Part shown: one piece after another, positions 3,744 to 47,076 of the stretch | Position numbering within the stretch: position 1 is the stretch's first letter | How the letters are laid out: every line of letters begins with the position of its first letter | DNA from: Methanobacteriota archaeon | GTDB taxonomy: Bacteria > Myxococcota > UBA727 > JABDBI01 | Assembly (NCBI GenBank): GCA_013288705.1 | Contig: JABDBI010000002.1 | Coordinates: 880-64,879, forward strand | Length of the DNA stretch: 64,000 bases | Reading direction: 5' to 3' | Position numbers and translations under genes: made by a program | The notes under the pieces: model-generated | What the model saw: only the letters and a program-made list of their open reading frames with translations | Told to the model about the DNA's origin: nothing | The model's database searches: none

Positions 3744-4370
3744 ATGGGCAAGTATATTAGCATAGGCGAGGCCGCCAAATTATTGGGAGTGTCCACCAAG
3801 ACTCTACGTCGATGGGAGGTCCAGGGGAAGCTCAAGTCCACTGAACGCACCGTTGGTGGTCAGCGGCGCTATGATATTTGTGGCTTGCGCCCACACAAGC
3901 GACAGCAGGGTGATGTCAATCGGCTTACGCTCGCATATGCACGCGTGTCAAGCCATGATCAAAAGTCCGATCTCGAGCAACAAAAAGACATGCTTCAGAT
4001 GTACTGTGCCGCACAAGGGTGGTCGTTTGAAATTGTATCAGATCTTGGTTCTGGCATGAATTATCAAAAGCGAGGTCTCCGTCGGATTTTGAACCAAATT
4101 ATCGATGGGGAGGTTGAGCGACTTGTGCTCACACATAAAGACCGACTCTTGCGTTTTGGCGCTGAGCTGGTCTTTTCAATCTGTGCGTCCAAAGGAACGG
4201 AGGTCGTGATGATCAATCGCGGCGATGAGCCGACTTTTGAAGAAGAATTGGCCCAAGATGTGCTCGAAATTATCACGGTCTTTTCGGCGAGATTATATGG
4301 TTCGAGAAGCCACAAGAACAAAAAACTGATCGAGAACTTGAAGACAGCCGCTGAGGCCGCCCATGCCTGA
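3744..4370 (+). CDS. tnpA: IS607-family transposase TnpA (MerR-HTH + serine recombinase)
   Basis: N-terminal HTH ISIGEAAKLLGVSTKTLRRWEVQGKL, followed by the resolvase core AYARVSSHDQKSDLEQQ. Confidence 0.9.
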   Translation: MGKYISIGEAAKLLGVSTKTLRRWEVQGKLKSTERTVGGQRRYDICGLRPHKRQQGDVNRLTLAYARVSSHDQKSDLEQQKDMLQMYCAAQGWSFEIVSDLGSGMNYQKRGLRRILNQIIDGEVERLVLTHKDRLLRFGAELVFSICASKGTEVVMINRGDEPTFEEELAQDVLEIITVFSARLYGSRSHKNKKLIENLKTAAEAAHA

Positions 4371-5811
4371 AGCAATTGCTGTCATCAAGCTCCGGCTAAA
4401 TCCCGACGCCGAGACCGCGCGGATTTTGGATGGGCAATCCAAGAAGTGCAACTGGCTCTACAATCAGCTTTTGGAAAAAGCGAATGCACTGCGAGTGTCA
4501 TATCGTGAGCAGCCGAGCGAAGAAATTAGCAAAGTGCTCTACACCAGCCGCGGTTTGAGAAATCTGGTACCCGGCTTCAAAGAGGAAAATCCCTTTTTGA
4601 AAACAGTTCACTCGTCACCACTCAAGAACGCAGCGCTCCGATTAACCGATTGCATCCAAAGTTATCAAAAATCGCGCAAAGGACAGCGCAAAGGCAAAAC
4701 TGGCTGGCCGAAGTTTCGATCCTGGAAAGCACAGTGGTTTTCTTTGTTTTACGACGAACCTAACAAAGGCTTTTGTATCGAGGGAAGTATCCTGCGCCTG
4801 TCTTTAGGCAGCGGATTAGACAGAAAGGACCGAGCTCTGCAAATTGCTCTTCCAGAAGCCTCTGCACTGAAGGGGAAGTCTGTCCGAAACCTGCGCATCG
4901 TGAAGCAGGCAGGTGTCTTCAGCACAGTGATGACGGTGGTTCGGCAAATGCCGGAGCAGAAACAAATTAAGCGCGTGATTGCCTTTGATCCAAACCACAA
5001 GAACTTTGCCTACGGCGTAGACAATGAAGGCAAAGCGATTGAGATAGAAAAACCCTGGTGGGTGAAGCGCTATGACCAACGCATCGATGAGATAAAATCT
5101 CTACGAGACAAAAAACAAAAGAAATCTCGCCTAATTCCAATTCTTGATGACCAAGGTAATCCAACCGGTAAGCAACGATTTGATGCTTCACGCCAGTATA
5201 AAAAGCTACAAACAACCTTAGAGCGAGCGCTCTCAAAACGCCGAGAACAGGTAAAGGTGTTTTTGTTCACGCTCGCCAACAGCCTATACCGCCAATATGA
5301 TTTGGTGGGTGTAGGTGATTACACTCCGAACGGAGGAGGAATCACGACGCCCATGCGCAGGGCGATGAACAATCAATCGTTGATTGGTCAGTTCAAGATA
5401 ATTGCAAAATGGTCTGCAGAGAAATCTGGTAAACATTTTATGGAGTTTGACGAAAGTGGGACGACCAGAACGTGCAACGTCTGCCATGATGTTGTGCAAG
5501 AAGGTTTGAGTCCGAGCATCCGCACGTGGATATGTGCAGGTTGTAATACCTGGCACATCCGCGATGAGAACGCAGCGCTCAACGGAATCACGCGCATCCT
5601 GCGGGAAGTGCAAGAAAGAAACCCAAAGCAATTTGGGTTAGTGCCCAGCTCGGGCCCCGTTTCTGTAAAGGAACGGTGGGCCTGGCGAGTTCGTCCTAGT
5701 GGCGTGTTACGCACGTCGCGGGGGATGGGCGGCTTTGTAAAAAGCAATCGCCAGGAAATTAAACGGAGGGCGTGGAAGCCCTCCATCCAGGCTGACCAAG
5801 TTTGTGCATAG
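4363..5811 (+). CDS. tnpB: TnpB (IS200/IS605-IS607 OrfB, RuvC-like RNA-guided nuclease family)
   Basis: RuvC-I VIAFDPNHKNFAYGV (D209), zinc finger CNVCHD...CAGCNTWH, and RuvC-III HIRDENAALNG (D401). The canonical RuvC-II position reads YDLVGVGDY, with G318 where Glu is expected. Confidence 0.9.
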   Translation: MPEAIAVIKLRLNPDAETARILDGQSKKCNWLYNQLLEKANALRVSYREQPSEEISKVLYTSRGLRNLVPGFKEENPFLKTVHSSPLKNAALRLTDCIQSYQKSRKGQRKGKTGWPKFRSWKAQWFSLFYDEPNKGFCIEGSILRLSLGSGLDRKDRALQIALPEASALKGKSVRNLRIVKQAGVFSTVMTVVRQMPEQKQIKRVIAFDPNHKNFAYGVDNEGKAIEIEKPWWVKRYDQRIDEIKSLRDKKQKKSRLIPILDDQGNPTGKQRFDASRQYKKLQTTLERALSKRREQVKVFLFTLANSLYRQYDLVGVGDYTPNGGGITTPMRRAMNNQSLIGQFKIIAKWSAEKSGKHFMEFDESGTTRTCNVCHDVVQEGLSPSIRTWICAGCNTWHIRDENAALNGITRILREVQERNPKQFGLVPSSGPVSVKERWAWRVRPSGVLRTSRGMGGFVKSNRQEIKRRAWKPSIQADQVCA

Positions 5812-5870: not shown

Positions 5871-5998
5871 CCAAAAAGCGCGCCGAACGTGGTGGTTTTT
5901 CGGGGAGAATGTTTGTAACAACGGCGGAACATTTTGATGGAAGCGTTGGTGCGAACTACTGTCTCGCGCAGCCGGACAAATATCCTGAAGCAGATTAG
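5871..5998 (+). pseudogene. orphan 3' fragment (41 codons + stop) of a MazG-like pyrophosphohydrolase gene
   Basis: Translates KKRAERGGFSGRMFVTTAEHFDGSVGANYCLAQPDKYPEAD*. This is nearly identical to the C-terminus of the intact gene ending at 6947. No upstream coding part is present. Confidence 0.75.
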
Positions 5999-5999
5999 A
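5871..5999 (+). repeat. left copy of 129-bp direct repeat
   Basis: Aligned by eye to 6820-6948 with 5 mismatches in 129 nt. Confidence 0.9.
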
Positions 6000-6548: not shown

Positions 6549-6947
6549 ATGAAAAAACGTGTCTTCATTCAAAATAAATTATGGCGCGACCATACCCCAA
6601 AAATGCTGGAGCAAACCGGTTCGGTAATTCACACTAAATACCTCGACGACAATGCATTCAATCACCACCTTCGCCTCAAATTACGAGAAGAAGCCGACGA
6701 GGTGATTTCCGCTGAATCTCAGCAAGAACTGATGAACGAGCTTGCAGATGTGCTTGAAGTTATTGATGCGTTGTGTGCGCTTCATGAGATGTCGCAAAGT
6801 GACATCGTAGCGATTCAAGCCAAAAAGCGCGCCGAACGTGGCGGTTTTTCGGGGAGAATGTTTGTAACAACGGCGGAACATTTTGATGGAAGCGCGGGTG
6901 CGAACTACTGCCTCGCACAGCCGGACAAATATCCTGAAGCAGATTAG
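6549..6947 (+). CDS. MazG-like / phosphoribosyl-ATP pyrophosphohydrolase-like nucleotide pyrophosphohydrolase
   Basis: MKKRVFIQNKLWRDHTPKML...LREEADEV...ELADVLEVIDAL, the all-alpha NTP-PPase pattern. The start is uncertain (6486 TTG, 6531 or 6549). Confidence 0.65.
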   Translation: MKKRVFIQNKLWRDHTPKMLEQTGSVIHTKYLDDNAFNHHLRLKLREEADEVISAESQQELMNELADVLEVIDALCALHEMSQSDIVAIQAKKRAERGGFSGRMFVTTAEHFDGSAGANYCLAQPDKYPEAD

Positions 6948-6948
6948 A
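6820..6948 (+). repeat. right copy of 129-bp direct repeat (3' end of the intact MazG-like gene)
   Basis: See 5871-5999. Confidence 0.9.
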
Positions 6949-7659: not shown

Positions 7660-7881
7660 CAGGTGCTTCCGATTGCTTGTGTGATCGCCGCCATTGTACG
7701 CCATTCTGGATTTCCATTGTAAGAGAATCTGCGGCTGGCTTCTATTTTCTGCCGGCGGCTGCAAGGCATGCGAGATACCTTCTCTAAAAAGTAAGTTTCT
7801 TGTTCTGACTACTGCAAAATCTAAAGTACACTAACACTGGTTGGTAATGCTGCTAATCATGCGTTTTCAGGCTATCTGAAA

Positions 7882-9783
7882 GTGATTAAAAAATTGCGCA
7901 TCAAAATGTTGAAGTTGACAATCGGAGATATGCAACAACTCGCGACGTTTCGCGGCGGAAAATGCCTTTCGAAAGACTTCAAGAATAATACTACGACACT
8001 TAGATGGGAATGCAAAAAGGGCCACGTCTGGGAAGCGATTCCAAAAAGCATTCGTAGAGGGAGTTGGTGCCCCAGCTGTGCGGGTCGTCGGAAAACGATC
8101 GATGATATGAGGGCCTTTGCTAAAAGAAAGGGCGGCGATTGCCTGTCTGAGAAATATATTCGAGGCGATGTCCCACTTCGGTGGAAATGTTCGAAGGGAC
8201 ACATTTGGGAGGCCAAACCACAGTCTGTTCTTCATCAAACAAGCTGGTGCCATATCTGTTCAAAAAGGCAACGCTACACACTTGACGATATGATTGCGCT
8301 GGCAAAAGAAAGGGGTGGGCGTTGCCTTTCGAAAAAATACGCCAACGTCTTCACCAAGATGAAATGGGAGTGCAGTCAAAAGCACAGATGGTCTGTAGCC
8401 GCCACGGGCGTTATCAGAGGCAGTTGGTGCCCCAAATGCGACACAAGCTTTGGTGAAGAGCTCACAAGGGCATTCTTTGAGGCTTTGTTTAACACACATT
8501 TTCCTTCCGCATGGCCAGATTGGCTAAGGAGCGCGAAGGGGCACGTTCTCGAGCTCGACGGATATAACGAGCCTTTGAAACTCGCTTTTGAACACCAAGG
8601 CAGCCATCATTACAGCACCAGTTCGAGTTTCATTTTTTCCGACGAGGATCTCAAGAATCGTAGGGCCACCGATAGGCGAAAGCGGTATTTGTGTAGGAAG
8701 CTTGGTGTGCGGTTGATAGCAGTGCCGCAAGTGCCTCGCTATCAACCAATACAAACTCTTGAATCCTTCATCAGAAAGAAGTGTCACACTTTGGGAGTCA
8801 CTGTGCCCCTGCCAGAAGGTGAGCTTAGGGTCAATTGGAAAAAAGTATACTGCCCGGATTCCCAGCGCTATTTAGAAGAGCTGAGGAACCTCGCCAGGGC
8901 AAGGAATGGCAAATTGTTGTCGGACAGATATCTCGGCATGCAGACTAAATTGCGATGGCAGTGCGACGACGGGCATGAATGGGCGGCCCAACCTGCCAGC
9001 ATAAAAGCAGGAACTTGGTGTGCATTTTGCAGCACACACCCACCAGCTTCAATTGCAGATATGCATGAACTGGCTGCTAGATATCACGGTAGATGCCTCT
9101 CAAAAATTTACAAAAACGCGACGACAAAAATCAAATGGGAATGTGAATTTGGTCATCGGTGGAAGTCGTTGGCCAGAAATGTGAAAGCTGATCATTGGTG
9201 TCCCAGATGTGGTGGTCGACAAAAGTATACGCTCAAAGAAATGCAACAATTCGCAAGACAATTGGGCGGAGCATGCCTTTCAAACGAATATCTTGGGATT
9301 AGTGAGAAACTAAAATGGAAGTGTGCTCAGGGGCATATTTGGGATGCGCCGCCCGCGCAAATTGTTGGAAAACACTGGTGCCTTGCATGTGCAGCCAAGG
9401 AGCGAGGGAGAAAGCGAAGGCTGACCATCGAAGAAATGCATGAGATTGCTGCAAGCAGAGAGGGAAAGTGCTTATCAAAGGAATATCTAACAGCGCAAAC
9501 ACACCTCGAGTGGGAGTGCAAAAAAGGTCACAAGTGGTGGGCCAAGCCGAACAATATAAAAAATGGCAAGTGGTGTCCGTTTTGTTTTGGTCGCGGTAAA
9601 ACGATTGTCGATATGAAAAGACTTGCCACTGAACGGGAAGGTTGCTGCCTCTCAGAGGAATATTTCGGCATGCATGCGAAGCTACGTTGGCAGTGTGAAA
9701 AAAAGCATGTCTGGGAGGCCACGCCTGCGCATATTTTGCATGGAGGGACCTGGTGTCCTTTTTGCGTTGGTCGAAAGCCATGA
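7882..9783 (+). CDS. multi-zinc-ribbon repeat protein with central PD-(D/E)xK-like nuclease-type core
   Basis: Eight ~60-aa repeats of the form GG.CLS..Y.....L.W.C..GH.W.A....I..G.WCP.C, three N-terminal and five C-terminal. They flank a core with VLELDGYNEPLKLAFEHQGSHHY...RLIAVP. Starts at GTG 7882 or ATG 7906. Confidence 0.75.
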   Translation: MIKKLRIKMLKLTIGDMQQLATFRGGKCLSKDFKNNTTTLRWECKKGHVWEAIPKSIRRGSWCPSCAGRRKTIDDMRAFAKRKGGDCLSEKYIRGDVPLRWKCSKGHIWEAKPQSVLHQTSWCHICSKRQRYTLDDMIALAKERGGRCLSKKYANVFTKMKWECSQKHRWSVAATGVIRGSWCPKCDTSFGEELTRAFFEALFNTHFPSAWPDWLRSAKGHVLELDGYNEPLKLAFEHQGSHHYSTSSSFIFSDEDLKNRRATDRRKRYLCRKLGVRLIAVPQVPRYQPIQTLESFIRKKCHTLGVTVPLPEGELRVNWKKVYCPDSQRYLEELRNLARARNGKLLSDRYLGMQTKLRWQCDDGHEWAAQPASIKAGTWCAFCSTHPPASIADMHELAARYHGRCLSKIYKNATTKIKWECEFGHRWKSLARNVKADHWCPRCGGRQKYTLKEMQQFARQLGGACLSNEYLGISEKLKWKCAQGHIWDAPPAQIVGKHWCLACAAKERGRKRRLTIEEMHEIAASREGKCLSKEYLTAQTHLEWECKKGHKWWAKPNNIKNGKWCPFCFGRGKTIVDMKRLATEREGCCLSEEYFGMHAKLRWQCEKKHVWEATPAHILHGGTWCPFCVGRKP

Positions 9784-9801: not shown

Positions 9802-9823
9802 CCTCCGGCTGGAGGTTTTTTTT
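9802..9823 (+). terminator. rho-independent terminator
   Basis: CCTCC-ggct-GGAGG followed by T8, 19 nt after the stop at 9783. Confidence 0.7.
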
Positions 9824-9995
9824 GGAAAGTTGCATGACTTTTTGAATGCCTCAAGAAAATTCAGGTGTTGGCAATAAAAGACTAGCCACCCTCACAATCA
9901 TAGACAGGGTCACTTTAGTTGGCAAAGAGAGCGCTTCTGGATATACTTTAATTGAGAATCAAAGTTAACGCTGCTCGCGTTTGGACTAAGCACTT

Positions 9996-10844: not shown

Positions 10845-11040
10845 GCTGATAATTGGCGAATTGGGCGTCAGATACAAGGCACGCACTAGCATTTGTTTGA
10901 GCCAGTAAGTCGCATCCCATATAACGCGCGAGCAAACAATCCTGAAATACAGAATGCGTCGACTTCGCATTGGCAGTGGACAATGACTGGCAAAGCTGAT
11001 CGCTGCCGCTCGCGTCATCCAAAATGAGGATGAATGGATC

Positions 11041-11132
11041 GGGCACGTACTAACACTTGCTACTACTAGAACCTCCACTTACTCAGCTCCCTTAGCATGT
11101 AGTCGAGTAAGAGTACGTGATAGTGTGTGCCC
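11041..11132. repeat. 92-bp imperfect palindrome built from two inverted copies of the island repeat core
   Basis: Outer arms are gggcacGTacta (11041-11052) and tagtGTgtgccc (11121-11132). Inner arms are cttactc (11078-11084) and gagtaag (11105-11111). The right half aligns to the reverse complement of the repeats at 11648 and 12483. Confidence 0.75.
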
Positions 11133-11600: not shown

Positions 11601-11647
11601 TGGATGGACGATAGGAATAGGCACAAATAGTGAAAATGTCGAATGAA

Positions 11648-11720
11648 ATGAAAGAATGAAAGTGCCGAGCACACACTAACACTTGCTCGACTGCATCGCG
11701 GGCACTCAAGCTAAAACCAA
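11648..11720 (+). repeat. 73-nt structured intergenic repeat, copy B
   Basis: Tandem TGAAAG half-sites 8 nt apart, then gagcaCACACTAACACTtgctc (5-bp stem) nested in AGTGCC...GGCACT. Identical to copy C at 58 of 73 positions by hand alignment. Confidence 0.8.
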
Positions 11721-12344: not shown

Positions 12345-12482
12345 CCTTTCCTAAACAATTTGATGTCGTATCGCAACAAATTGTGACTCGCACAGCGTGC
12401 GTGTGCCCCAGATACGCGCCTAACGCACTAGCACCTGCTAGAGCCTAAGCCGCTAATGGTTTGCTTTAAGAACTGGAATCAA

Positions 12483-12555
12483 GTGAAAGAGTGAAAGTGT
12501 CGGGCCCACACTAACACTTGCTCGATGACAGCGCGTGCACCCGATCCGAAACCAA
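12483..12555 (+). repeat. 73-nt structured intergenic repeat, copy C
   Basis: Same architecture as copy B. It ends 1 nt before the hicB stop codon. A degenerate extra core (gcctaacgcactagcacctgctaga) lies at 12418-12441. Confidence 0.8.
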
Positions 12556-12876
12556 CTAAGCAGCCAACTTCGCACTAACAAGACGATTCAACGACACATG
12601 TGCCTCATGAGCCTCGACAGCGAGCCTTCGATGTACGTCCTGTGGAACGCGAACCTGAAATTTGCCACTAAAGTGTTTCTTTGACAGCGGCTCTGGAATT
12701 TTCTCTTTTCTGATGTGCAGGTCCTCTAAAACTTCTGCCACAACCTTCCGAATTCCTCTAAAGGCGCCGTCTTGTGTTTTTGCTAGCCAACTTAGACTCG
12801 GAAACTCAGCACATAACCCAACATATTCGTCGTCTTCTTCAGACCACACAACGCGATAGCAATATTTGTCATGCAT
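12556..12876 (-). CDS. hicB: HicB-family antitoxin
   Basis: YCYRVVWSEEDDEYVGLCAEFPSLSWLAKT (HicB N-domain) and a C-terminal RHH-like GKFQVRVPQDVHRRLAVEAHEAHVSLNRLV. ATG 12876 overlaps the hicA stop. Confidence 0.85.
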   Translation of the reverse strand: MHDKYCYRVVWSEEDDEYVGLCAEFPSLSWLAKTQDGAFRGIRKVVAEVLEDLHIRKEKIPEPLSKKHFSGKFQVRVPQDVHRRLAVEAHEAHVSLNRLVSAKLAA

Positions 12877-13126
12877 GGCTCTCTTCCTCCTTCCTCTCAA
12901 TTGCCTTGAGCACTTGCCTAACTTGATAAGCCTTGGCTTTTCCTTTATCGTTCTGAATATTCACTCTTGGATCGCCTTCCCATGGCGTCTTAAAAACCAT
13001 GTGACTACTCCCAGACTGACGCGGCTTCCCGAAATAATGCTCGCAAATCTTGGCAAGGTCAGAAAAGCGTATGCTTTTTGGGCTATTACGCATTTTCTCC
13101 AAGATTTCTTCAAACTTTTCACCCAT
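12869..13126 (-). CDS. hicA: HicA-family toxin (mRNA interferase)
   Basis: MGEKFEEILEKMRNSPKSIRFSDLAKICEHYFGKPRQSGSSHMVFKTPWEGDPRVNIQ, including the conserved GSH. It lies upstream of and overlaps hicB. Confidence 0.8.
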   Translation of the reverse strand: MGEKFEEILEKMRNSPKSIRFSDLAKICEHYFGKPRQSGSSHMVFKTPWEGDPRVNIQNDKGKAKAYQVRQVLKAIERKEEESHA

Positions 13127-13130
13127 GGCT

Positions 13131-13154
13131 AATAGTATCATTACTGATACTATT
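13131..13154. promoter_or_regulatory. perfect palindromic operator candidate at the hicA start
   Basis: AATAGTATCA-ttac-TGATACTATT, ending 4 nt from the hicA ATG. It overlaps a possible -10 (TACTAT) with TTGCAA 17 nt upstream on the minus strand. Confidence 0.5.
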
Positions 13155-13242: not shown

Positions 13243-14751
13243 ATGGTTCTACATCCCCTCTCCAAGTCCCAATACCTCAAAGGCCGCCACTGCATCCGCC
13301 GCGTCTGGCTCTACAACTGGCACCGCGAACTCATGCAGCCTCCCAGCGAAGTGCAACAATCTATCTTTCAGCAAGGCCACGACGTCGGTCGCTTAGCTCA
13401 CCAGCTTTTTCCTGGTGGCATTGAAATCACCGAGGACCACAATGACCCCGCCGGCGCGCTGAGCAGCACGCAGGTAGCTATCCAATCTGGCGCTCCGGCT
13501 GTTTTTGAAGCGGCATTCGAATTTGACAGCATCCTGATTCGCACAGATATCCTCGCAAAAAACAACGACGGCTCATGGTCTCTCCACGAAGTGAAAAGTT
13601 CCACGAAGGTGAAGGACGAACATTTTCAAGACGTGGCCGTGCAGAAATATGTGCTTGACCACTGCGGGTTCAATATCCGCAACGCAAATCTCATCCATTT
13701 GAATCACCAATTTGTACGCCAAGGTGAGATTTCTCCCGAGAAGTTGTTCACCACAGAAACGCTCGATCGAAATGATAAGTTTATTGAGGCCTATGCGGAG
13801 ATTCCAATATACTTAGCGCGGATTCGCGATGCGTTAGCAAAAGATGAAGTCCCCGAGCAAATGCTCGGATCAATCTGCAAAAATCCCTATGAATGTGAGT
13901 TCAAGAGCCATTGCTGGGCATCGGTGCCCGCAAACTCTATTCATTATCTCGTAGATATCCGCGACAAAAAACGCGAGGCGTTGCTTTCGATGGGCATCGA
14001 CGAAGTTGGCAATATACCAGATAGCTTTGCACTTTCCGAGAATCAGCGGGTTCAGGTTCACGCGGAACGCTTAGGAAAGGCTATCATCGATTACGATGCA
14101 ATAAAGAAACATCTCCAAGAACTCTCATATCCGTTGTGGTTCGTCGATTTTGAAACTGTCGGCTTTGCCATTCCTGCATATGATGGCACTAAACCCTACG
14201 AGCATTTGCCTTTCCAATTTTCGTTGCATGTTCAGGCGGAGCCAGGTGGTTCGCTTGAACATCATGAATTTTTGTTCGACGAGAAAAGTGATTCACGCAG
14301 AAATTTGGCAGCCACGCTATGTTCTTTAGTCGGTGATGAAGGCAGCATCATCGCTTATCACGCGTCATTTGAAGCGGGTCGGATAAAGGAACTTGCTCAG
14401 CTATGTCCCGAGCTCTCGACGAAGTTGCAGTCTATGCTGGGGCGTATTTGGGATCTCGAAAAACCCTTTGCGGAGCGCTGGTATTGTCATCCGCAATTTC
14501 ATGGCCGTTCATCTCTTAAGAGTGTACTGCCAGTAGTTGTCCCCGAACTCTCCTACGACGATATGGAAATTGGCAAGGGTGATTTGGCGCAGCTAAAATA
14601 CACGGAGATGCTGGATTTGCTCAAAACAAGCGAGGCGCATCGCAAAATCAAGAAGGACCTTTTGGCGTATTGTGGGCAAGATACATTTGCGATGGTCAAA
14701 ATTTTGGCGGTGCTAACAAGGCAGATTGCGTTGTCGTCGAACAAGTGTTAG
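13243..14751 (+). CDS. DUF2779 protein: Cas4/RecB-like PD-(D/E)xK nuclease N-domain + DEDD-type exonuclease-like C-domain
   Basis: N-terminus LSKSQYLKGRHCIRRVWL. Cys cluster C...CKNPYECEFKSHC. C-half WFVDFETVGFAIP (D-x-E), YHASFE, YCGQDTFAMV. Confidence 0.75.
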   Translation: MVLHPLSKSQYLKGRHCIRRVWLYNWHRELMQPPSEVQQSIFQQGHDVGRLAHQLFPGGIEITEDHNDPAGALSSTQVAIQSGAPAVFEAAFEFDSILIRTDILAKNNDGSWSLHEVKSSTKVKDEHFQDVAVQKYVLDHCGFNIRNANLIHLNHQFVRQGEISPEKLFTTETLDRNDKFIEAYAEIPIYLARIRDALAKDEVPEQMLGSICKNPYECEFKSHCWASVPANSIHYLVDIRDKKREALLSMGIDEVGNIPDSFALSENQRVQVHAERLGKAIIDYDAIKKHLQELSYPLWFVDFETVGFAIPAYDGTKPYEHLPFQFSLHVQAEPGGSLEHHEFLFDEKSDSRRNLAATLCSLVGDEGSIIAYHASFEAGRIKELAQLCPELSTKLQSMLGRIWDLEKPFAERWYCHPQFHGRSSLKSVLPVVVPELSYDDMEIGKGDLAQLKYTEMLDLLKTSEAHRKIKKDLLAYCGQDTFAMVKILAVLTRQIALSSNKC

Positions 14752-39858: not shown

Positions 39859-42120
39859 ATGAGCACTGTTGACAAATTAAACAAGCAAACATCTGGCGCC
39901 ACCGCTGCGCGGCAAGGAATCAGCAAAGACTTGATGGAAGTAGGGCAAGTCGTTGAAGCCATTCGCAAGCGATGGCCATTGGTTGTCGCGGTGATAACCG
40001 CTGTTTTGGCTTTAGGCGTGATTTACACCCTGCGGGCTCCAAAGCTCTATCAGGCTATCGTATCCATCGTGATATCTCGAAATGCGCCACAGGTTTTGAC
40101 TGGCGTCCAAGAGTTGACTCCAATGGGTAGCGGAGCCTATTGGGATGAGGCGTTTCTCCAAACCGAATACAAAATTATTGGCAGCCGCACCGTAGCCCTG
40201 CGAGCGGCGAAAAAACTCAATCTTCTCATGGATGATCGCCATAATGGTTTGGATAAAATCCAAGATCCAAAGCTGAGAGAGGAAAAGAGAAAATCCTTAG
40301 ACGTTGCCAAATTAATTGAAGACAGCGTTGAAATTGTTCCTGTCAAGCGATCTCAGTTGGTGACCCTAGAGGTTGTCAATTCTGACGCGAAGTTTGCAGC
40401 GGCATTGGCGAACGCAATGGCCACCAGCTATATGGAATACAACGTCGAGAAACGCATGAGTGGTACTGCTGAGGCAAGCACATGGCTGTCTGTGCAGCAC
40501 GAAGATCTCAAGAAAAAATTGGCCAGCTCGGAAGATGACTTGTATGCGTTCATGGCCAAGAAAGGCATCTTAAATGCCAGCCTAGAAAGTCAGATGGATG
40601 AGGTCAAAAGTCGGCTGACGCAGTTTATTGGCAAACTCGCAGAAGTGCAGGCCCAGCGCATTGCGGGCCAAGTCAATGGAGAAGCACTGAAGCGCGTTTA
40701 TGATGATCCGGGCGTACTGGATTCCTTGACCGACGTGCAGAATGCATTGGTCATCAACACGATGAAAGGGAAGCTGATGGAGGCGATGGCGATGCATTCG
40801 GATCTCGCATCCAAGTATCTGCCGGATCATCCGAAGATGGTGGGGTTGCAAGATCAAATTGCATCTTTACAGAGAAGCCTAAAAAAAGAAGTGGATGCGA
40901 CGATTAAGCGACTTGAGCGTGATCAGATTTCACTCGCAAAGACTGAGGAAGGATTAAATGCAGCGGTGTCGCGGGAGAGATCTCGAGAAGCGGCGATGAA
41001 CAGGCTTGGGCTGGAGTACGGTCGACTAAAACGAGACGTTGAGACGAACTCCAAACTCTATGAGATGGTGACCACGCGATTAAAAGAAATCGGCCTAACA
41101 GGCATGATGCAGATTAACAACGTGCATCTCTTGGATACGGCTGAGGTGCCGCGAAAGCCCTATAGGCCAAGTTGGCCCCGCAATTTGGGTCTGTCGCTGC
41201 TCGTTGGTCTATTGTTGAGTCTCGGCCTTGCCTGGTTACTCGAGATGCTTGACACCTCACTGAAGACGCAAGACGAGGTGGAAAAATTCCTTGGCCTGCC
41301 ATTCCTCGGTGTGATGCCGATTATCCAGCCTTCGACTGCTTCTAAATCAAAGGCAGGCACTAAGTCCAAGCGCGCCGATAACGAGTCTATACGTGAGCGC
41401 GATCTCTATGTGCTGCATAATCCAAAGAGCATGGCAGCAGAATGTTCGCGTGCTATTCGTACAAATCTTCTCTTTATGAGTCCAGATAATCCGTTAAAAA
41501 CTTTTATCATCACTTCTGCCATGCCTCGAGAGGGTAAGACAACGACGGCCGTCAATTTGGCAGCGACAATGGCGCAAACGGGAAGCAGAGTTTTGATTGT
41601 CGATACGGATTTGAGAAAGCCGCGAATTCATAAGAGCTTTGGGTTGCCCAATGATGTCGGTGTCTCCAGCATTATTGTTGGCGAGACCAGATTAGAAGAT
41701 GCGATTCGACACAGTGAGTTGCCTGGATTGGATGTTTTAACCTGCGGCCCCATTCCGCCAAATCCCGCCGAGTTGCTTCATACGGCGAAGTTCCAGGAGC
41801 TTTTGACACTGCTGAAAAGCAAATACGATAAGGTTATTTTTGATGCTCCGCCAGTGGGTGCCGTCACAGATCCAGTGATTCTCGGTACTCAAGTTGATGG
41901 TGTTATTCTCATTGCCAAGACTGGATATACTGCTAGAGAAATGGTTGTCCATGCTGTGCGAACCTTGGAAGATGCGAGGGTGCATTTGCTCGGGGTGATT
42001 CTAAATGACATGGATATTTCCGCTAAGAAGTACGGGTACTACTATGGCAAATATTATCGCTACGGTCGTTACTACGGTCAGTACGGAGAAACCACTGGAG
42101 CAGGTCAGAAAGCCAGCTAA
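39859..42120 (+). CDS. polysaccharide co-polymerase / BY-kinase (Wzc/GumC-like tyrosine autokinase)
   Basis: Wzz-type periplasmic coiled-coil region. Walker A SAMPREGKTT. VLIVDTDLRKP. Walker B VIFDAPPV. Tyr-rich tail KKYGYYYGKYYRYGRYYGQYG. Confidence 0.9.
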   Translation: MSTVDKLNKQTSGATAARQGISKDLMEVGQVVEAIRKRWPLVVAVITAVLALGVIYTLRAPKLYQAIVSIVISRNAPQVLTGVQELTPMGSGAYWDEAFLQTEYKIIGSRTVALRAAKKLNLLMDDRHNGLDKIQDPKLREEKRKSLDVAKLIEDSVEIVPVKRSQLVTLEVVNSDAKFAAALANAMATSYMEYNVEKRMSGTAEASTWLSVQHEDLKKKLASSEDDLYAFMAKKGILNASLESQMDEVKSRLTQFIGKLAEVQAQRIAGQVNGEALKRVYDDPGVLDSLTDVQNALVINTMKGKLMEAMAMHSDLASKYLPDHPKMVGLQDQIASLQRSLKKEVDATIKRLERDQISLAKTEEGLNAAVSRERSREAAMNRLGLEYGRLKRDVETNSKLYEMVTTRLKEIGLTGMMQINNVHLLDTAEVPRKPYRPSWPRNLGLSLLVGLLLSLGLAWLLEMLDTSLKTQDEVEKFLGLPFLGVMPIIQPSTASKSKAGTKSKRADNESIRERDLYVLHNPKSMAAECSRAIRTNLLFMSPDNPLKTFIITSAMPREGKTTTAVNLAATMAQTGSRVLIVDTDLRKPRIHKSFGLPNDVGVSSIIVGETRLEDAIRHSELPGLDVLTCGPIPPNPAELLHTAKFQELLTLLKSKYDKVIFDAPPVGAVTDPVILGTQVDGVILIAKTGYTAREMVVHAVRTLEDARVHLLGVILNDMDISAKKYGYYYGKYYRYGRYYGQYGETTGAGQKAS

Positions 42121-43745
42121 TTTGCTTCCTGCGGGGAAGCGATGCTAGAAATTGCCTGAAGCACCGTTGCCATCGACGGTGCTTCAATCATTGTGACTTC
42201 GCCAATTGCTTTTGGGATTACGAACCTCAGATTTTTGCCGACTCGTTTTTTATCATGGCCCATGGCGTTGAAAATAGCTTCCGCTGAAACCCTTTCCATT
42301 TGCGTGGGCAAGCCATATTGCTTGAGCACAGCACGAAGTCGAGCAGGAAGACCAGGGCTACATTGACCAAGGTTTAGAGCGAGTTCGCTCGCTGCAATGA
42401 GACCCAATGCGACAGCTTCGCCATGGGGTATTTTGTAATTGCTTACAAGTTCGATGGCATGTCCGAATGTATGACCCAAATTCAATTTGGCGCGCTTGCC
42501 AAGCTCAAGCGGATCTTCTTCGACGATGTGTGCTTTCACCAAGACCGCACGGTAGATCATTTCGCTTAAATCTTGGTTTTGTTTCTTTTCAAACATCTCA
42601 AACAGTTTGGGGTCGCCAATGATCCCATGTTTGATGGCTTCAGCAATGCCACAGTTGATTTCTCGCTGCGGAAGAGTTTCCAATGCGTTGGGATCGATGA
42701 ATACAGCTCGGGGCTGTTTAAAGGTTCCGACTAGATTCTTTCCTTCTGGCAGATCCACTCCATTTTTGCCACCGATGGAGGCATCCACCATAGAGAGCAA
42801 CGTCGTTGGAATTTGGATGTGGTCAATACCGCGCAAAAATGTTGCTGCAGCAAATCCGGCGATATCACTTGTGACGCCACCGCCAACTGAAATCATCGGG
42901 CAGTTACGCGTAATGCCATGCGCGAGAAATTGCTCGTAAATTTTCGCCACGCTTACGAGCGTTTTATATCTTTCACCATCGGCAATGATGCATAGTTTGG
43001 TGGCAAATCCGGCTGCCGCGAGACCCTTTTCTATCTCCACACCCGTTGCCTCCCACACTTTTTTGTTGGTGACGACCGCCACGTGGGTGGGGTTGTAGTG
43101 GAGCCAATGCATTGCTTTGCCAATGTCTTTGCGAAGGTCTTTGGCAATCACGACCGGGTAGGGGCCATCGGAGGTTTTGACGAAGAGCGTATTCTTGTGA
43201 CCAAAATGCACGTCTAATTCTGTGAGCTCCAAAATTTGACTAACCAGTGTTTCGGTAGACTTTTCGTCTGTTCCGATCTGATGAAAAATGCGCCGATAAG
43301 CAGTTTTGCGATCTTCGAGCAACTCGTGAATGGTTTGCAAACGATCGACATCGCGTGCAGGCAGAAGCGGTCGGCCGTTATGATTTCTCAGCCGCCCGAG
43401 TATGATCTCAGGTGCGGCGTTCAAACAAAAGACAGAGGTTGTTTGGGCAAACAAAGACAGATTCTTGCGCGCGAGCAGCGTTCCACCGCCGGTGGAGATC
43501 ACGAGATTGGTTTTTTGCGAGAGCTCATCACAGAGCTTAGCTTCCGCCTGACGAAAAGCGCTCTCGCCATCTTGCGCGAAAATATCAGCGACAGATTTTC
43601 CTGCCCGCTTCTCGATTTCTTGGTCAGTATCCAAAAACGCTCGACCAAGCCGACGTGCAAGCAACTGGCCTACAGCAGATTTGCCGGTGCCCATGAAGCC
43701 GGTCAAAACAATCGTGCGCTCGCCCACGCCTTCAAATCTGCTCAT
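42117..43745 (-). CDS. aroKB: bifunctional shikimate kinase / 3-dehydroquinate synthase
   Basis: N-terminal GFMGTGKSAVG P-loop (AroK), followed by the AroB core GGGVTSDIAGFAAATFLRGI and HGEAVALG. Confidence 0.9.
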   Translation of the reverse strand: MSRFEGVGERTIVLTGFMGTGKSAVGQLLARRLGRAFLDTDQEIEKRAGKSVADIFAQDGESAFRQAEAKLCDELSQKTNLVISTGGGTLLARKNLSLFAQTTSVFCLNAAPEIILGRLRNHNGRPLLPARDVDRLQTIHELLEDRKTAYRRIFHQIGTDEKSTETLVSQILELTELDVHFGHKNTLFVKTSDGPYPVVIAKDLRKDIGKAMHWLHYNPTHVAVVTNKKVWEATGVEIEKGLAAAGFATKLCIIADGERYKTLVSVAKIYEQFLAHGITRNCPMISVGGGVTSDIAGFAAATFLRGIDHIQIPTTLLSMVDASIGGKNGVDLPEGKNLVGTFKQPRAVFIDPNALETLPQREINCGIAEAIKHGIIGDPKLFEMFEKKQNQDLSEMIYRAVLVKAHIVEEDPLELGKRAKLNLGHTFGHAIELVSNYKIPHGEAVALGLIAASELALNLGQCSPGLPARLRAVLKQYGLPTQMERVSAEAIFNAMGHDKKRVGKNLRFVIPKAIGEVTMIEAPSMATVLQAISSIASPQEAN

Positions 43746-44931
43746 ACTGGAACCGCCAAGGCTGATTGGTAAGATGCACATCAGATAGACGGTTTTGCCG
43801 GAGCATCTCAAATCTCGGCACCATCTCGTCGTAGCTATCACCACCCAGCTTTTCAAGCAGCGCATTGGCAAGCACGTACGCCATCATGGCCTCGCCGATT
43901 GGCACCGCCCGAGGAACTGCACAAAAGTCGCTACGCTCATAGGTCGTCTTACTGGCTTTGCCTTTTGCCATATCCACACTGTCGAGCGGGTTAAGCGTCG
44001 TGCTAATCGGTTTCATGGCAATGCGTGCCACGATTGGCATGCCGTTTGAAATACCACCCTCGAGGCCAGCCCCCCGATTGGTTTTGCGAAAAAGACTACC
44101 GTCTTTGTCTATAAAAATCTCATCGTGGACTTTGGTTCCGCGCTGCTCTGCATTGCGAAACGCATGACCAAGTTCCATGCCTTTCATGGCCGGTATGCTC
44201 AACATGGCCATGGCAATTTGCCCGTCGAGGCGCCTATCCCAATGCGCATAGGTCCCAAGGCCAACCGGGACACCGAGGGCGACAATTTCAAATATTCCAC
44301 CCAGAGTATCTTTGTCTTTCATGCAACGATGAATTTCTTCCCGCACTGAGTCTTCAAAAGATTCATCGGGGATGGCAAACTCATTTGCACGCGCGATATC
44401 AAAGCGCTTCACAAAGTCAGCACGATCGGAAAGCTCATTGAGCTTAATTTTGATCGGACCAATTTGGGTGACGTAGCCACCGATAGTCAAACCGAAAGGT
44501 TCGAGAATCTGTTTGCAAAGGCTGCCCGCGCACACGCGCATGGTGGTTTCCCGTGCGCTCGCACGCTCGAGGCTGAGGCGCAGATCTCGATGCCCATACT
44601 TAAGCGCTCCGGTAAGATCCGCATGGCCGGGTCGCGGCGTTGTCATTGGCTCAATCGCCTTATCTTGCCAACTCTTGTAATCAGCGTTGGTAATTTCCAT
44701 GGCGATCGGAGCGCCCGTGGTAAGCCCTTGTGCGACTCCGGATGAAATGTGCACTTCATCTCGTTCAATCTTCATTCGCCCGCCGCGCCCGAAGCCTTGT
44801 TGGCGTCGCGCTAGATCGGCGTTGATGGTTTTGGTGTTGATAGCGAATCCCGCGGGAGCACCCTCGAGAATTGCTGTGAGCTTGGGGCCATGGCTCTCCC
44901 CGGCGGTTAATAGGCGCAAACGACTAAACAT
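43732..44931 (-). CDS. aroC: chorismate synthase
   Basis: MFSRLRLLTAGESHGPKL, GRSSARETT-like ERASARETTMRV. Confidence 0.95.
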   Translation of the reverse strand: MFSRLRLLTAGESHGPKLTAILEGAPAGFAINTKTINADLARRQQGFGRGGRMKIERDEVHISSGVAQGLTTGAPIAMEITNADYKSWQDKAIEPMTTPRPGHADLTGALKYGHRDLRLSLERASARETTMRVCAGSLCKQILEPFGLTIGGYVTQIGPIKIKLNELSDRADFVKRFDIARANEFAIPDESFEDSVREEIHRCMKDKDTLGGIFEIVALGVPVGLGTYAHWDRRLDGQIAMAMLSIPAMKGMELGHAFRNAEQRGTKVHDEIFIDKDGSLFRKTNRGAGLEGGISNGMPIVARIAMKPISTTLNPLDSVDMAKGKASKTTYERSDFCAVPRAVPIGEAMMAYVLANALLEKLGGDSYDEMVPRFEMLRQNRLSDVHLTNQPWRFQYEQI

Positions 44932-45754
44932 TGAGGGCCTCCTCAGCCGCACTCTTCATAATCTCGATCGGAGCTTTTTCGCCCGTCCACATTTCGAAGG
45001 CAAGCGCACCTTGATGCACCAACATACCGAGTCCGCTAATTGCGCGAGCACCATCCGCTTCTGCTTTCTTAAACAAAGCTGTTTTGGGTGGGTTGTAGAT
45101 TAAGTCATAGACAATCTGTTGCTGGTTGAACGAAATGCTCGGATCCCACGGAAGTGCATCGCTCTCGTTCAAGCCGAGCGATGTGCAATTGACAATCAAG
45201 CCCGCTCTTGAGGGCTTGTTGTTGGTGATGACGGCATCAGCAAAGAGTATTTTCATGTCATCGATGATTTGCTGTGCTCTTTCTTTGCTTCGATTAATAA
45301 TATTTAGACTGGTACACCCGGCCTCGAGTAGCCCATAGACAATCGCTCGAGCAGAACCGCCCGCTCCGAGCACCGTCGCTTGAGTTTGCTCTGGCACAAT
45401 ATTGTGAATGCGAAGGTCGCTAATAAACCCGGGGGCATCGGTGTTGTCTCCGAACAGCGTTTTGTCGCCTTTGACCAAAATGGTATTCACTGCTCCAATG
45501 TTATTTGCGCGTTCACTGAGACGATCCAATAGCGGCATGACTGCTTCTTTATAGGGCACCGTGACATTAGCGCCTCGAAAGTGATGATAGTGTAGGTTAG
45601 CGATAGTATTTTCCAAATGGCTCGAATGTTCCGTGGAGACGGGCATGCGCAAATAGTTCCAATCGAGGCCGCAGTGCTTAAAAGCAGCATTCATCATCGC
45701 AGGACTGAGGCTGTGACTCACAGGCCATCCGATCACGCCGGCTAGTTTCGTCAT
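44924..45754 (-). CDS. aroE: shikimate dehydrogenase
   Basis: VIGWPVSHSLSPAMMNAAF, NVTVPYK, LGAGGSARA. Confidence 0.9.
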   Translation of the reverse strand: MTKLAGVIGWPVSHSLSPAMMNAAFKHCGLDWNYLRMPVSTEHSSHLENTIANLHYHHFRGANVTVPYKEAVMPLLDRLSERANNIGAVNTILVKGDKTLFGDNTDAPGFISDLRIHNIVPEQTQATVLGAGGSARAIVYGLLEAGCTSLNIINRSKERAQQIIDDMKILFADAVITNNKPSRAGLIVNCTSLGLNESDALPWDPSISFNQQQIVYDLIYNPPKTALFKKAEADGARAISGLGMLVHQGALAFEMWTGEKAPIEIMKSAAEEALNV

Positions 45755-47076
45755 GGTCGAACCTCCTTGGAGCTAATCGCTGCACCAAGTGCACTTAAAA
45801 CTCTGACAAAACTTGGAAAGCTATCTTTCACAACTTCGCTGTGCGTCACAGTCGTATTGCCTTGCGCATGGAGTCCAGCGATGGCCATCGCCATGGCCAG
45901 GCGATGGTCTCCATGACTATCCACGGTACCGCCGTGAAGTTTGCCTGGACCATCTACCACGAATCCATCGTCTGTTGCCGAAATTGTCGCCCCCATCTTG
46001 CGCAGTTCTCGCACTGTTGTGTCGATTCGATTCGTTTCTTTCACTTTGAGCTCACCGGCATTTCGAATGGTCGTCAGGCCCTTAGCATGTGAGGCGGCAA
46101 CGGCTAGCACGGGCAGCTCATCGATCATGCGTACAACAACATCACCGGCAAATGTAGCGCCGTGAAGTTCACTTCCGAGAACATGAATATCTGCGACGGG
46201 TTCACCGCCTATCTCATGCAAATTTGTCACCCGAATATGAGCGCCCATGGCGCGGAGTGCATCGATGATTCCGGTGCGCGTTGGGTTTACTCCGACGTGC
46301 CGAATCATCACATCACTTCCTGGTACAATTGCAGCGGCGACGAGCAAGAATGCTGCAGAGGAAATGTCACCGGGAACAGTGATTTCGAGAGGCTTTAGCG
46401 AAGATGTGAGCGGAGAGACGCAGATAGTTTGGCCTCGAGTGACAATTCTTGCACCCATTGCGTTGAGCATGCGCTCCGTGTGATCGCGCGCAGGCCCCGG
46501 CTCGGAGATCGTCGTATCACCATCGGCAAACAATCCAGCCAACAGCAAGCAGCTTTTCACTTGCGCGCTGGCCACGTCCATTTGGTAAGAGATGCCGTGA
46601 AGTTTGGGATTGGGTCCAATTTGCAGCGGCGCCAAGTTATTTCCCTGATGCGCCGAAATCACCGCTCCCATTTGTCGCAACGGCTGAATCACACGACCCA
46701 TGGGGCGACGTCTGATTTGGTCAGTCCCCGTGAGAATGCTGGTGAATGATTGACCTGCAAGAATACCCGCCATAAGGCGAATGGTGGTGCCGGAGTTGTC
46801 ACAGTCAAGCACTTCCGTGGGCGCGTGCAATCCATGCGCTCCGACGCCATGCACAACTAACTCATTTTCGTATGGCCAGTCGATTTTGACGCCGAGTTTT
46901 TGCATCACATGGGTGGTAGCGACGCAATCTGTGCCGCGCAAAAACCCCTTGATATGCGATGCTCCGGATGCCAGCGACGCAAACATAACAGCACGGTGGC
47001 TAATGGATTTGTCACCATCGACGAGAACATCTCCAACAAGTTTTTGTGCTGGTTGCACATGCAGTTCTTGGGCCAT
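45751..47076 (-). CDS. aroA: 3-phosphoshikimate 1-carboxyvinyltransferase (EPSP synthase)
   Basis: DKSISHRAVMFASLA, CDNSGTTIRLMAGILAG, DHRLAMAMAIAGL. Confidence 0.95.
   Translation of the reverse strand: MAQELHVQPAQKLVGDVLVDGDKSISHRAVMFASLASGASHIKGFLRGTDCVATTHVMQKLGVKIDWPYENELVVHGVGAHGLHAPTEVLDCDNSGTTIRLMAGILAGQSFTSILTGTDQIRRRPMGRVIQPLRQMGAVISAHQGNNLAPLQIGPNPKLHGISYQMDVASAQVKSCLLLAGLFADGDTTISEPGPARDHTERMLNAMGARIVTRGQTICVSPLTSSLKPLEITVPGDISSAAFLLVAAAIVPGSDVMIRHVGVNPTRTGIIDALRAMGAHIRVTNLHEIGGEPVADIHVLGSELHGATFAGDVVVRMIDELPVLAVAASHAKGLTTIRNAGELKVKETNRIDTTVRELRKMGATISATDDGFVVDGPGKLHGGTVDSHGDHRLAMAMAIAGLHAQGNTTVTHSEVVKDSFPSFVRVLSALGAAISSKEVRP

Follow-up and report, generated by a model that had tools for sequence, protein, structure and literature searches.

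A Vsr-like core between arms of DUF4379/CapR-type zinc modules: a candidate free-standing homing-type nuclease

Introduction

The locus studied here raises the question of what is done by a protein in which eight zinc-ribbon-like repeats stand on both sides of a nuclease-like segment. A first-pass annotation, made from the letters of the DNA, had described it as a candidate homing-type or defence-type nuclease with an array of nucleic-acid-binding fingers. We followed up this proposal by analyzing the gene, its repeats, its core, its relatives and its surroundings in the window, by which we mean the whole stretch of 64,000 nucleotides that was analyzed.

The gene and its boundaries

The reading frame is open throughout from a GTG at 7882 to position 9783 on the forward strand and encodes 633 aa, which is the numbering used below. 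The true start is probably the ATG at 7906 (M9, MLKLTIGDM...), giving a protein of 625 aa, because the N-termini of homologues match there, beginning 1-4 residues ahead of the first 'K-x-T-I-x-D-M'. An identical protein was predicted on two assemblies, and the genome has one copy of the gene. It is free-standing, flanked by unrelated ORFs, and does not lie inside an intron or intein. The terminator of its own that had been claimed for it was recovered as an intrinsic-terminator-like hairpin (CCTCCGGCTGGAGG) followed by T8 at 9802-9825 on the forward strand, 3' of the stop codon, as found by a consensus scan only.

An array of eight zinc modules

The ORF translation, the positions of the WCxxC motif and Pfam all bear out the earlier description of a 633-aa protein with eight repeat units split 3+5 around a core. 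Each unit comprises 56 aa, with three standing before and five after a core of about 100 aa that has a helical extension, and each is closed by WCxxC (aa 66, 126, 186, 383, 443, 503, 568 and 628); the non-repeat stretch between units 3 and 4 spans 141 aa (aa 187-327). The repeats had been likened to DUF4379, and this was correct, as Pfam DUF4379 (PF14311) scored 91.4 bits against a gathering cut-off of 24.5 (E 3.9e-26) in eight stretches that correspond to all eight units. The Pfam CapR homology domain (PF21817) also matched, with 49.2 bits against a cut-off of 24.2 (E 5.9e-13) in three stretches.

All modules are encoded on the forward strand. On the N-terminal side are module 1 (aa 11-66, 7912-8079; candidate ligands C28, C44, H48, C63 and C66), which the AF2 model shows as a helix, a hairpin and a short helix, module 2 (aa 71-126, 8092-8259; C87, C103, H107, C123 and C126) and module 3 (aa 131-186, 8272-8439; C148, C164, H168, C183 and C186). 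The C-terminal side opens with module 4 (aa 328-383, 8863-9030; C361, H365, C380 and C383), in which L345 replaces the Cys of the 'CLS' motif, and continues with module 5 (aa 388-443, 9043-9210), module 6 (aa 448-503, 9223-9390), module 7 (aa 513-568, 9418-9585) and module 8 (aa 573-628, 9598-9765), for which Pfam, the motif and AF2 agree. The pattern C-x3-H...C-x2-C occurs in 8/8 units, in line with the four or more metal ligands per unit proposed before, and the extra 'CLS' Cys in 7/8, with Leu in unit 4. When 30 homologues were aligned with MAFFT, the candidate ligand columns were invariant or nearly so. A zinc site of the form C-x3-H...C-x2-C in each module is probable.

The units were also said to be diverged from one another, and they share on average 43% identity at the amino acid level and 52% at the nucleotide level, with a maximum of 61% for nucleotides. 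Only module 4 (position +1) has positional counterparts in homologues, the other units being without positional orthology, and the scaffold of the module is constant except at about 12 high-entropy positions. DNA binding has been shown experimentally for CapR, where it requires four conserved cysteines (PMC8096241), and by homology we infer that the modules described here may bind DNA as well. A more speculative idea, which we consider rather doubtful, is that together they read DNA module by module, as zinc-finger or TALE arrays do. Each unit would contact a few base pairs with the variable positions on its surface, units could be reshuffled freely, and the nuclease would cut between the two arms. 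If this were true, the family would be a natural and very diverse library of programmable long-site nucleases.

The nuclease core

The segment between the arms consists of a predicted Vsr/DUF559-like nuclease core (aa 187-285, 8440-8736, forward strand), delimited by conservation, AF2, BFVD fold matches and hhalign, and of a helical extension with a linker (aa 286-327, 8737-8862, forward strand), in which AF2 places helices at 290-303 and 319-323 with mostly good confidence and which is partly conserved among homologues. Across 109 homologues, E192, E224, D226, E237, H243, D264 and K267 show little or no variation, and all of them are intact here. Five of these, E192, D226, E237, H243 and D264, are invariant in the 109 cores and follow the E-D-x-H-D arrangement known from Vsr and I-Bth0305I. 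The AF2 model of aa 182-347 has a pLDDT of 91.6 and shows an alpha-beta-beta-alpha-beta core. The whole-protein model reached a pTM of only 0.39, and thus the mutual arrangement of the domains is not predicted.

When the core model was compared with the predicted viral structures of BFVD, 60 matches were obtained at E<=1e-3, with viral models annotated as restriction endonuclease, DUF2726, DUF559 and homing endonuclease matching at E 1e-11 to 5e-4. The Foldseek search of the PDB with the core model ranked Vsr (1cw0) second, as a weak match (E 1.3, TM 0.41), and I-Bth0305I (3R3P) was absent from the top 50. Sequence and HMM searches of the PDB gave nothing meaningful, whether they started from the whole protein, from the core or unit profile, or from gp194, a phage relative treated below, and the isolated core matched no Pfam family at E<=10. 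Profile-profile comparisons were then made with home-made profiles (28 cores of the family, 15 DUF559 domains and seven I-Bth0305I-type sequences). In hhalign, the 28-core profile aligned to the DUF559 profile with a probability of 88.8% and E 2.5e-6, and D226, E237, H243 and D264 fell in register with DUF559 residues. These results support remote homology of the core to DUF559, a Vsr-like PD-(D/E)xK family; the core appears to be a member of the superfamily that lies outside Pfam family DUF559 (PF04480), because the Pfam HMM gives no direct match. The nuclease-like core suggested at first pass is therefore supported at the level of a Vsr-like PD-(D/E)xK fold, by AF2, BFVD and hhalign to both DUF559 and gp194.

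Other family labels were also compared. DUF2726 (PF10881) matched 9/28 family cores at E<=1 (best E 0.0092), with no match to the core of the window protein itself, and a DUF2726 search of the same order gave only two matches, not enough for a profile. PHROG 559 (E 9e-79), whose match spans modules and core, and PHROG 681, an endonuclease family (E 2.5e-60), were both hit; the name 'HNH endonuclease' attached to PHROG 559 was rejected, as there is no Pfam HNH match and the name appears to be a mislabel. An Endonuclease_7 hit (E 0.011, 16 bits against a cut-off of 23.6) falls on a zinc module.

The fold also bears on whether the substrate could be RNA, since Vsr-like RAP/FASTK domains act on organelle RNA, zinc ribbons can bind RNA, and FASTKD4 has been described as a Vsr-like RNA-binding protein (PMC11879112). 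The whole-protein model gave nothing significant in the PDB by Foldseek; a Toxoplasma mitoribosome-associated chain was matched with a probability of 0.89 and a non-significant E of 0.51. The closest characterized relatives of both parts (CapR, phage homing nucleases, DUF559 and Vsr) act on DNA, however, and we regard an RNA-directed role as very improbable.

Relatives among known systems

The closest precedent in composition comes from phage group I/II introns, in which 3-5 CapR/DUF4379/DUF723-like domains are joined to an EDxHD/Vsr-like nuclease in intron-borne homing endonucleases, and whose authors noted thousands of unannotated relatives and a large unrecognized outgroup of homing endonucleases (PMC12350094, NAR 2025). 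Both these enzymes and the window protein combine tandem zinc modules of about 60 aa with a Vsr-like nuclease of about 100 aa. They differ, going by the published description, in that the intronic enzymes carry the nuclease at the C-terminus, behind 3-5 modules, whereas the window protein has 3+5 modules flanking a central nuclease and is free-standing in a bacterial chromosome.

The prototype EDxHD homing endonuclease is I-Bth0305I (PDB 3R3P), which acts as a dimer (PMC3239194). Its residues E170, D196, N208, H213 and D222 occur in the same order as E192, D226, E237, H243 and D264 of the window protein, with spacings of 26/12/5/9 against 34/11/6/21 here, and it has an invariant E206 two residues ahead of N208. 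The hhalign comparison of the core profile was not significant with either I-Bth0305I alone (E 0.015, probability 3%) or the seven-sequence profile (E 0.0021, probability 13.5%). In the latter alignment, E237/E206, D264/D222 and K267/K225 with the next G are in register, and H243/H213 is offset by a gap. I-Bth0305I is intron-encoded and has helix-turn-helix NUMOD motifs, in contrast to the zinc modules of the window protein. A clearer match to the core is gp194, a 'homing nuclease' of Bacillus phage 0305phi8-36 (ABS83752), which was found by tblastn at 1e-6 and which hhalign indicates to be homologous in the core (99.3%, E 3.6e-20, 34% identity across 79 columns). The protein gp194 is short (170 aa), has a single small CxxC...CxxC zinc ribbon instead of a DUF4379 array, and owes its putative function to annotation. 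Likewise, DUF559 and Vsr proteins are small and single-domain, in contrast to the multi-module window protein, and Vsr is a mismatch-specific nickase with its own zinc site within the nuclease domain.

[quoted passage not shown] On the module side, PLE CapR of Vibrio cholerae and the T5orf172/GIY-YIG homing endonucleases of ICP1 and T5-like phages have the zinc DNA-binding module in common with the window protein (PMC8096241), and tblastn also found matches to 'endonuclease' genes of T5-like phages. The partners of the module differ, as the ICP1/T5-like enzymes join it to a GIY-YIG/T5orf172 nuclease, CapR has no nuclease, and the window protein has a Vsr-like one.

Family distribution and the proposed function

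The core family comprises about 27,800 clusters at 50% identity, with homologues in bacteria, archaea, 311 phage records, 107 plasmid records and giant viruses. Arrays stand on both sides of the core in about 109 of the 120 best homologues, and on this comparison the 3+5 layout is typical of a very large family. The closest homologue is only 45% identical. The window protein is a divergent representative of this mobile family, which has already been flagged in the literature. A search of a collection of genome contigs for related loci found one distant locus only, which was of no use for synteny. The gene was absent from all of the 40 genomes searched, which were drawn from the same family, order and phylum, and this argues against a conserved host role. 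Among named organisms, the best aroA matches were only about 61-62% identical and came from Chloroflexota, and genomes of 9-11 Mb occur in the same phylum.

This absence also speaks against domestication, in which the protein would be a repressor or a nucleoid-type DNA-binding protein like PLE CapR, with the nuclease fold kept and cutting lost. CapR is itself a domesticated relative of the module and works as a repressor (PMC8096241), and degenerate cores do occur, as some family members have two cores in one chain of which one is often degenerate. However, the window protein retains every acidic and His residue of the core that is invariant in the family, and we consider a domesticated binder improbable.

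Instead, we propose that the gene encodes a free-standing, rare-cutting, homing-type nuclease that would owe its sequence specificity to the zinc-module array, a reading to which we assign a probability of about 0.6. The eight DUF4379/CapR-type modules would act as a string of DNA-binding units, and the central Vsr/DUF559-like 'E-D-x-H-D' domain would cut DNA in a Mg-dependent manner. The three N-terminal and five C-terminal modules may hold the DNA to each side of the cut, and both arms would jointly define a long, rare target. Cutting of both strands would probably need two nuclease domains brought together by dimerization, which is suggested by the members with two cores per chain and by the dimeric action of I-Bth0305I. 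As a selfish gene, it would spread horizontally, either alone as one gene or carried by islands, plasmids, phages and giant viruses. Cleavage activity, dimerization, target length and homing are the parts of the proposal that we infer.

The core family is among the largest nuclease families without biochemical characterization, and its members are spread over bacteria, archaea, phages and giant viruses. Biochemical and structural work on a tractable representative would yield the first structure of a DUF4379/CapR module, and would show how strings of 5-14 modules read DNA and whether the arrays are modular enough for re-engineering.

Genomic setting

The main rival to the homing-type reading is that of a lone defence nuclease against phages or plasmids, spread as cargo of defence islands, in which the array would recognize foreign, perhaps modified, DNA and the core would degrade it. 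Several neighbourhoods are in keeping with such a role. The homologue of Priestia megaterium lies between ScoMcrA-like HNH, NucS-like, SIR2-HEPN and HsdR genes, that of the B. cereus group is cargo of an integrase-bearing island and not a clean single-gene insertion, and the accessory stretch around the window gene also has a HicAB-like pair and a Cas4/DUF2779 gene; moreover, the family is diverse and patchy, as defence genes are. However, PADLOC-DB 2.0 matched 0 defence families at E<=1, and the six homologue loci examined share no conserved neighbour gene, be it a methylase, an immunity gene or a sensor. Phages and giant viruses themselves encode many homologues, annotated as homing endonucleases, and others stand alone among housekeeping genes. 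The location of some homologues in defence islands or next to integrases fits cargo carriage or defence as well as autonomous homing. We therefore regard defence as unlikely, albeit a serious competitor, and of the earlier pair 'homing-type or defence-type' the homing-type half is the better supported, the other half being without a PADLOC match.

The gene had also been placed at the edge of a repeat-marked accessory region. The accessory stretch is present, but of the repeat said to mark it there is only a 10/11 core match upstream of the gene (7830-7840) and no copy directly downstream of it. The GC content of the gene (0.484) is close to that of the window (0.504), so that composition gives no sign of recent acquisition.

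An IS607-like tnpA/tnpB pair at 3744-5811, about 2 kb upstream, might suggest that the gene is an accessory gene of this element. The two are separated, however, by a 129-bp duplication and at least four further ORFs, and IS607 was found at 0/6 of the homologue loci; this cargo reading was rejected on both grounds and is the least probable of those considered. In this genome, the homing-type nuclease gene would add to the signs of a mobile stretch, acquired horizontally, beside IS607.

Results and discussion

The best-supported reading of the open reading frame at 7882-9783 on the forward strand (GTG start, 633 aa) is that it encodes a predicted rare-cutting, sequence-specific DNA endonuclease, a divergent representative of a kind that is already known but has not been characterised. 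Because the ATG at 7906 (M9, MLKLTIGDM...) agrees better than the GTG with the N-termini of homologues, it is probably the true start; residues are numbered here from the GTG. A hairpin followed by T8 lies directly 3' of the stop codon, and the GC content of the gene is unremarkable. The first-pass annotation had described eight zinc repeats split 3+5 around a nuclease-like core, and this layout is confirmed by the WCxxC motifs that close each unit (aa 66, 126, 186, 383, 443, 503, 568 and 628) and by the 141-aa segment without repeats between units 3 and 4.

Pfam placed all eight units in DUF4379, labelled 'probable treble clef zinc finger' (E 3.9e-26; 91.4 bits, cut-off 24.5), which is the domain originally proposed, and they also match the CapR homology domain (E 5.9e-13). 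CapR, the one characterised relative of the module, is a phage-satellite repressor that originated from the DNA-binding domains of homing endonucleases, and mutation of its four conserved cysteines abolished DNA binding (PMC8096241). The units share 32-55% identity in protein (mean 43%) and 42-61% in DNA (mean 52%); this low identity indicates that they are old or strongly diversified, in line with the earlier impression of repeats that are old or under selection. Among 1,159 units taken from the best 120 of 2,409 homologues found by a word-based search, 1,012 were exactly 56 aa long, with a rigid scaffold (xxTIxxMxxxAxxRGGKCLSxxYxNxxTKLxWxCxxGHxWxAxPxxIKxGxWCPxC) in which about a dozen positions had high entropy. 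The extraction pattern itself fixed the Cys and His positions, but a separate MAFFT alignment likewise showed little or no variation at them. Since the Cys of 'CLS' is replaced by Leu in unit 4 of our protein, the predicted zinc site is likely to be C-x3-H...C-x2-C. AlphaFold2 folded each unit as a helix, a short strand, a beta-hairpin and a short helix, and because the linkers were of low confidence and pTM was 0.39 (whole-protein pLDDT 82.6), the model of the whole protein amounts to beads on a string. Neither sequence search nor fold search found solved structures resembling a unit. Positional orthology among the homologues compared was found for the unit directly after the core and for no other.

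In 109 cores aligned with MAFFT, E192, F207, E224, L225, D226, G227, E237, G240, H243, D264, K267 and C271 were invariant or nearly so, and all 12 residues are intact in this protein. The AlphaFold2 model of aa 182-347 was confident (pLDDT 91.6), running from a helix (E192) through strands (D226, E237) and a long helix (D264, K267) to a final strand. It matched 60 predicted viral structures at E<=1e-3, the best being giant-virus 'zinc-ribbon' and 'restriction endonuclease' proteins (TM 0.70-0.74), followed at lower rank by one phage 'homing endonuclease', one DUF2726 protein and one DUF559 protein. A fold search of the PDB with this model was weak, with Vsr (1cw0) second (E 1.3, TM 0.41). Pfam, which recognised the repeats, gave no significant match for the core by sequence, nor did the PDB; DUF2726 was weakly matched by 9 of 28 family cores. 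The core matched the 'homing nuclease' gp194 of Bacillus phage 0305phi8-36 both by tblastn (1e-6) and in a profile alignment (99.3% probability). Against 15 DUF559 domains from genomes of the host's phylum the core profile scored 88.8% (E 2.5e-6), and the D, E, H and D of DUF559 line up with D226, E237, H243 and D264. Comparison with I-Bth0305I, the EDxHD prototype, whose sequence was taken from the recA intron of phage 0305phi8-36, was not significant (probability 3% for I-Bth0305I by itself and 13.5% when a profile of seven sequences was used); E237/E206, D264/D222 and K267/K225 are in register, with the catalytic His gap-shifted. Taken together, these comparisons make the core a distinct family that belongs, within the restriction-endonuclease-like superfamily, to the Vsr/DUF559 branch, in agreement with the Vsr/PD-(D/E)xK fold first suggested for it. 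A canonical DUF559 protein (E 5.5e-35) is encoded elsewhere in the host genome (contig 18, 19825-20151), at a position unrelated to this gene.

The Vsr/DUF559-like core and the DUF4379/CapR units support the view of the protein as a candidate nuclease with a predicted DNA-binding array. We propose that the two zinc-module arms would bind DNA to either side of the Vsr-like catalytic domain, in which D226 and E237 would bind metal and H243 and D264 would have the roles that they have in Vsr and I-Bth0305I. Two catalytic domains would probably be required to break both strands, as the I-Bth0305I dimer and the existence of natural relatives with tandem cores suggest. Some family members have two tandem cores, one often degenerate. 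Four such homologues (P0243, P0244, P0314 and P0373) carry both cores in a single chain, and three of the four have lost the Asp of 'ELDG' from the first core (replaced by T, S or N), like a pseudo-dimer.

The architecture of modules plus core is common and has already been noticed. Unit arrays flank the same core on both sides in about 109 of the 120 best homologues, where 2-9 units precede the core and 0-8 follow it, and a core-profile HMM scan returned 27,783 clusters (50% identity) at E<=1e-3 and 8,642 at E<=1e-10, from proteins of 142 to 1,305 aa. [quoted passage not shown] The gene is of value because this biochemically unexplored family is so large and because its module array may read DNA in a modular manner.

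Of the homing-type and defence-type roles initially considered, that of a free-standing homing-type selfish gene is the most likely. The gene is single-copy in the host genome (1.63 Mb, 74% complete) and absent from 40 genomes of the host's family, order and phylum, and its nearest homologue in the word-based search has 45% identity. Homologues occur in 311 phage records, mostly annotated as endonuclease or homing endonuclease, on megaplasmids, and alone among housekeeping genes in one flavobacterium and one archaeon. The main rival is a solitary defence nuclease: the Priestia homologue is inside a defence island and that of the B. cereus group is in an island adjoining an integrase, but a PADLOC search for the gene gave no match. 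No partner gene was conserved across the homologue loci examined (flavobacterium, archaeon, Priestia, B. cereus group and megaplasmids). On the Bacillus mycoides megaplasmid p419 (NZ_CP036030.1) the query hit seven places by tblastn, and the full-length homologue (locus L009) has phage-like surroundings, which include genes for a KilAC antirepressor, an HNH endonuclease, a nucleotide pyrophosphohydrolase and a helicase.

Upstream of the gene are small ORFs and an IS607-like tnpA/tnpB pair (3744-5811), of which TnpA (208 aa, MerR-HTH/serine resolvase) overlaps TnpB (482 aa, Cas12f1-like TNB and OrfB_IS605 domains). A 129-nt direct repeat, 96% identical (5871-5999 and 6820-6948), flanks the region just right of IS607. 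Downstream follow an unknown 282-aa ORF, DUF3892 and SF0329 genes, a HicB-type pair and a DUF2779/Cas4-like gene. The pair (~12556-13141, reverse strand, from Logan contig gene calls) consists of a 90-aa ORF followed by a HicB-family antitoxin gene (106 aa) and is probably a HicAB toxin-antitoxin pair; the 502-aa protein at 13243-14751 combines DUF2779 (E 4.7e-42) with a Cas4-like PD-(D/E)xK domain (E 1.5e-5), a second restriction-fold nuclease in this accessory stretch. A repeat family with the core ACTAACACTTGCTCG occurs at 11027-11061, 11641-11720, 12476-12555 and 14728-14751 (inverted), and upstream of the nuclease gene only as a weak 10/11 core match (7830-7840); the window holds five matches to ACTAACACTTGCTCG at <=1 mismatch, where chance alone would give 0.58. 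The SF0329-like gene has an 80-nt copy on each side, and these two copies are 80% identical. Farther along, a shikimate-pathway cluster on the reverse strand (42117-47076) comprises an aroK-aroB fusion (584 aa), aroC (406 aa) and aroA (441 aa), and the best named relatives of this aroA, from Caldilineaceae (Chloroflexota), are only about 61-62% identical.
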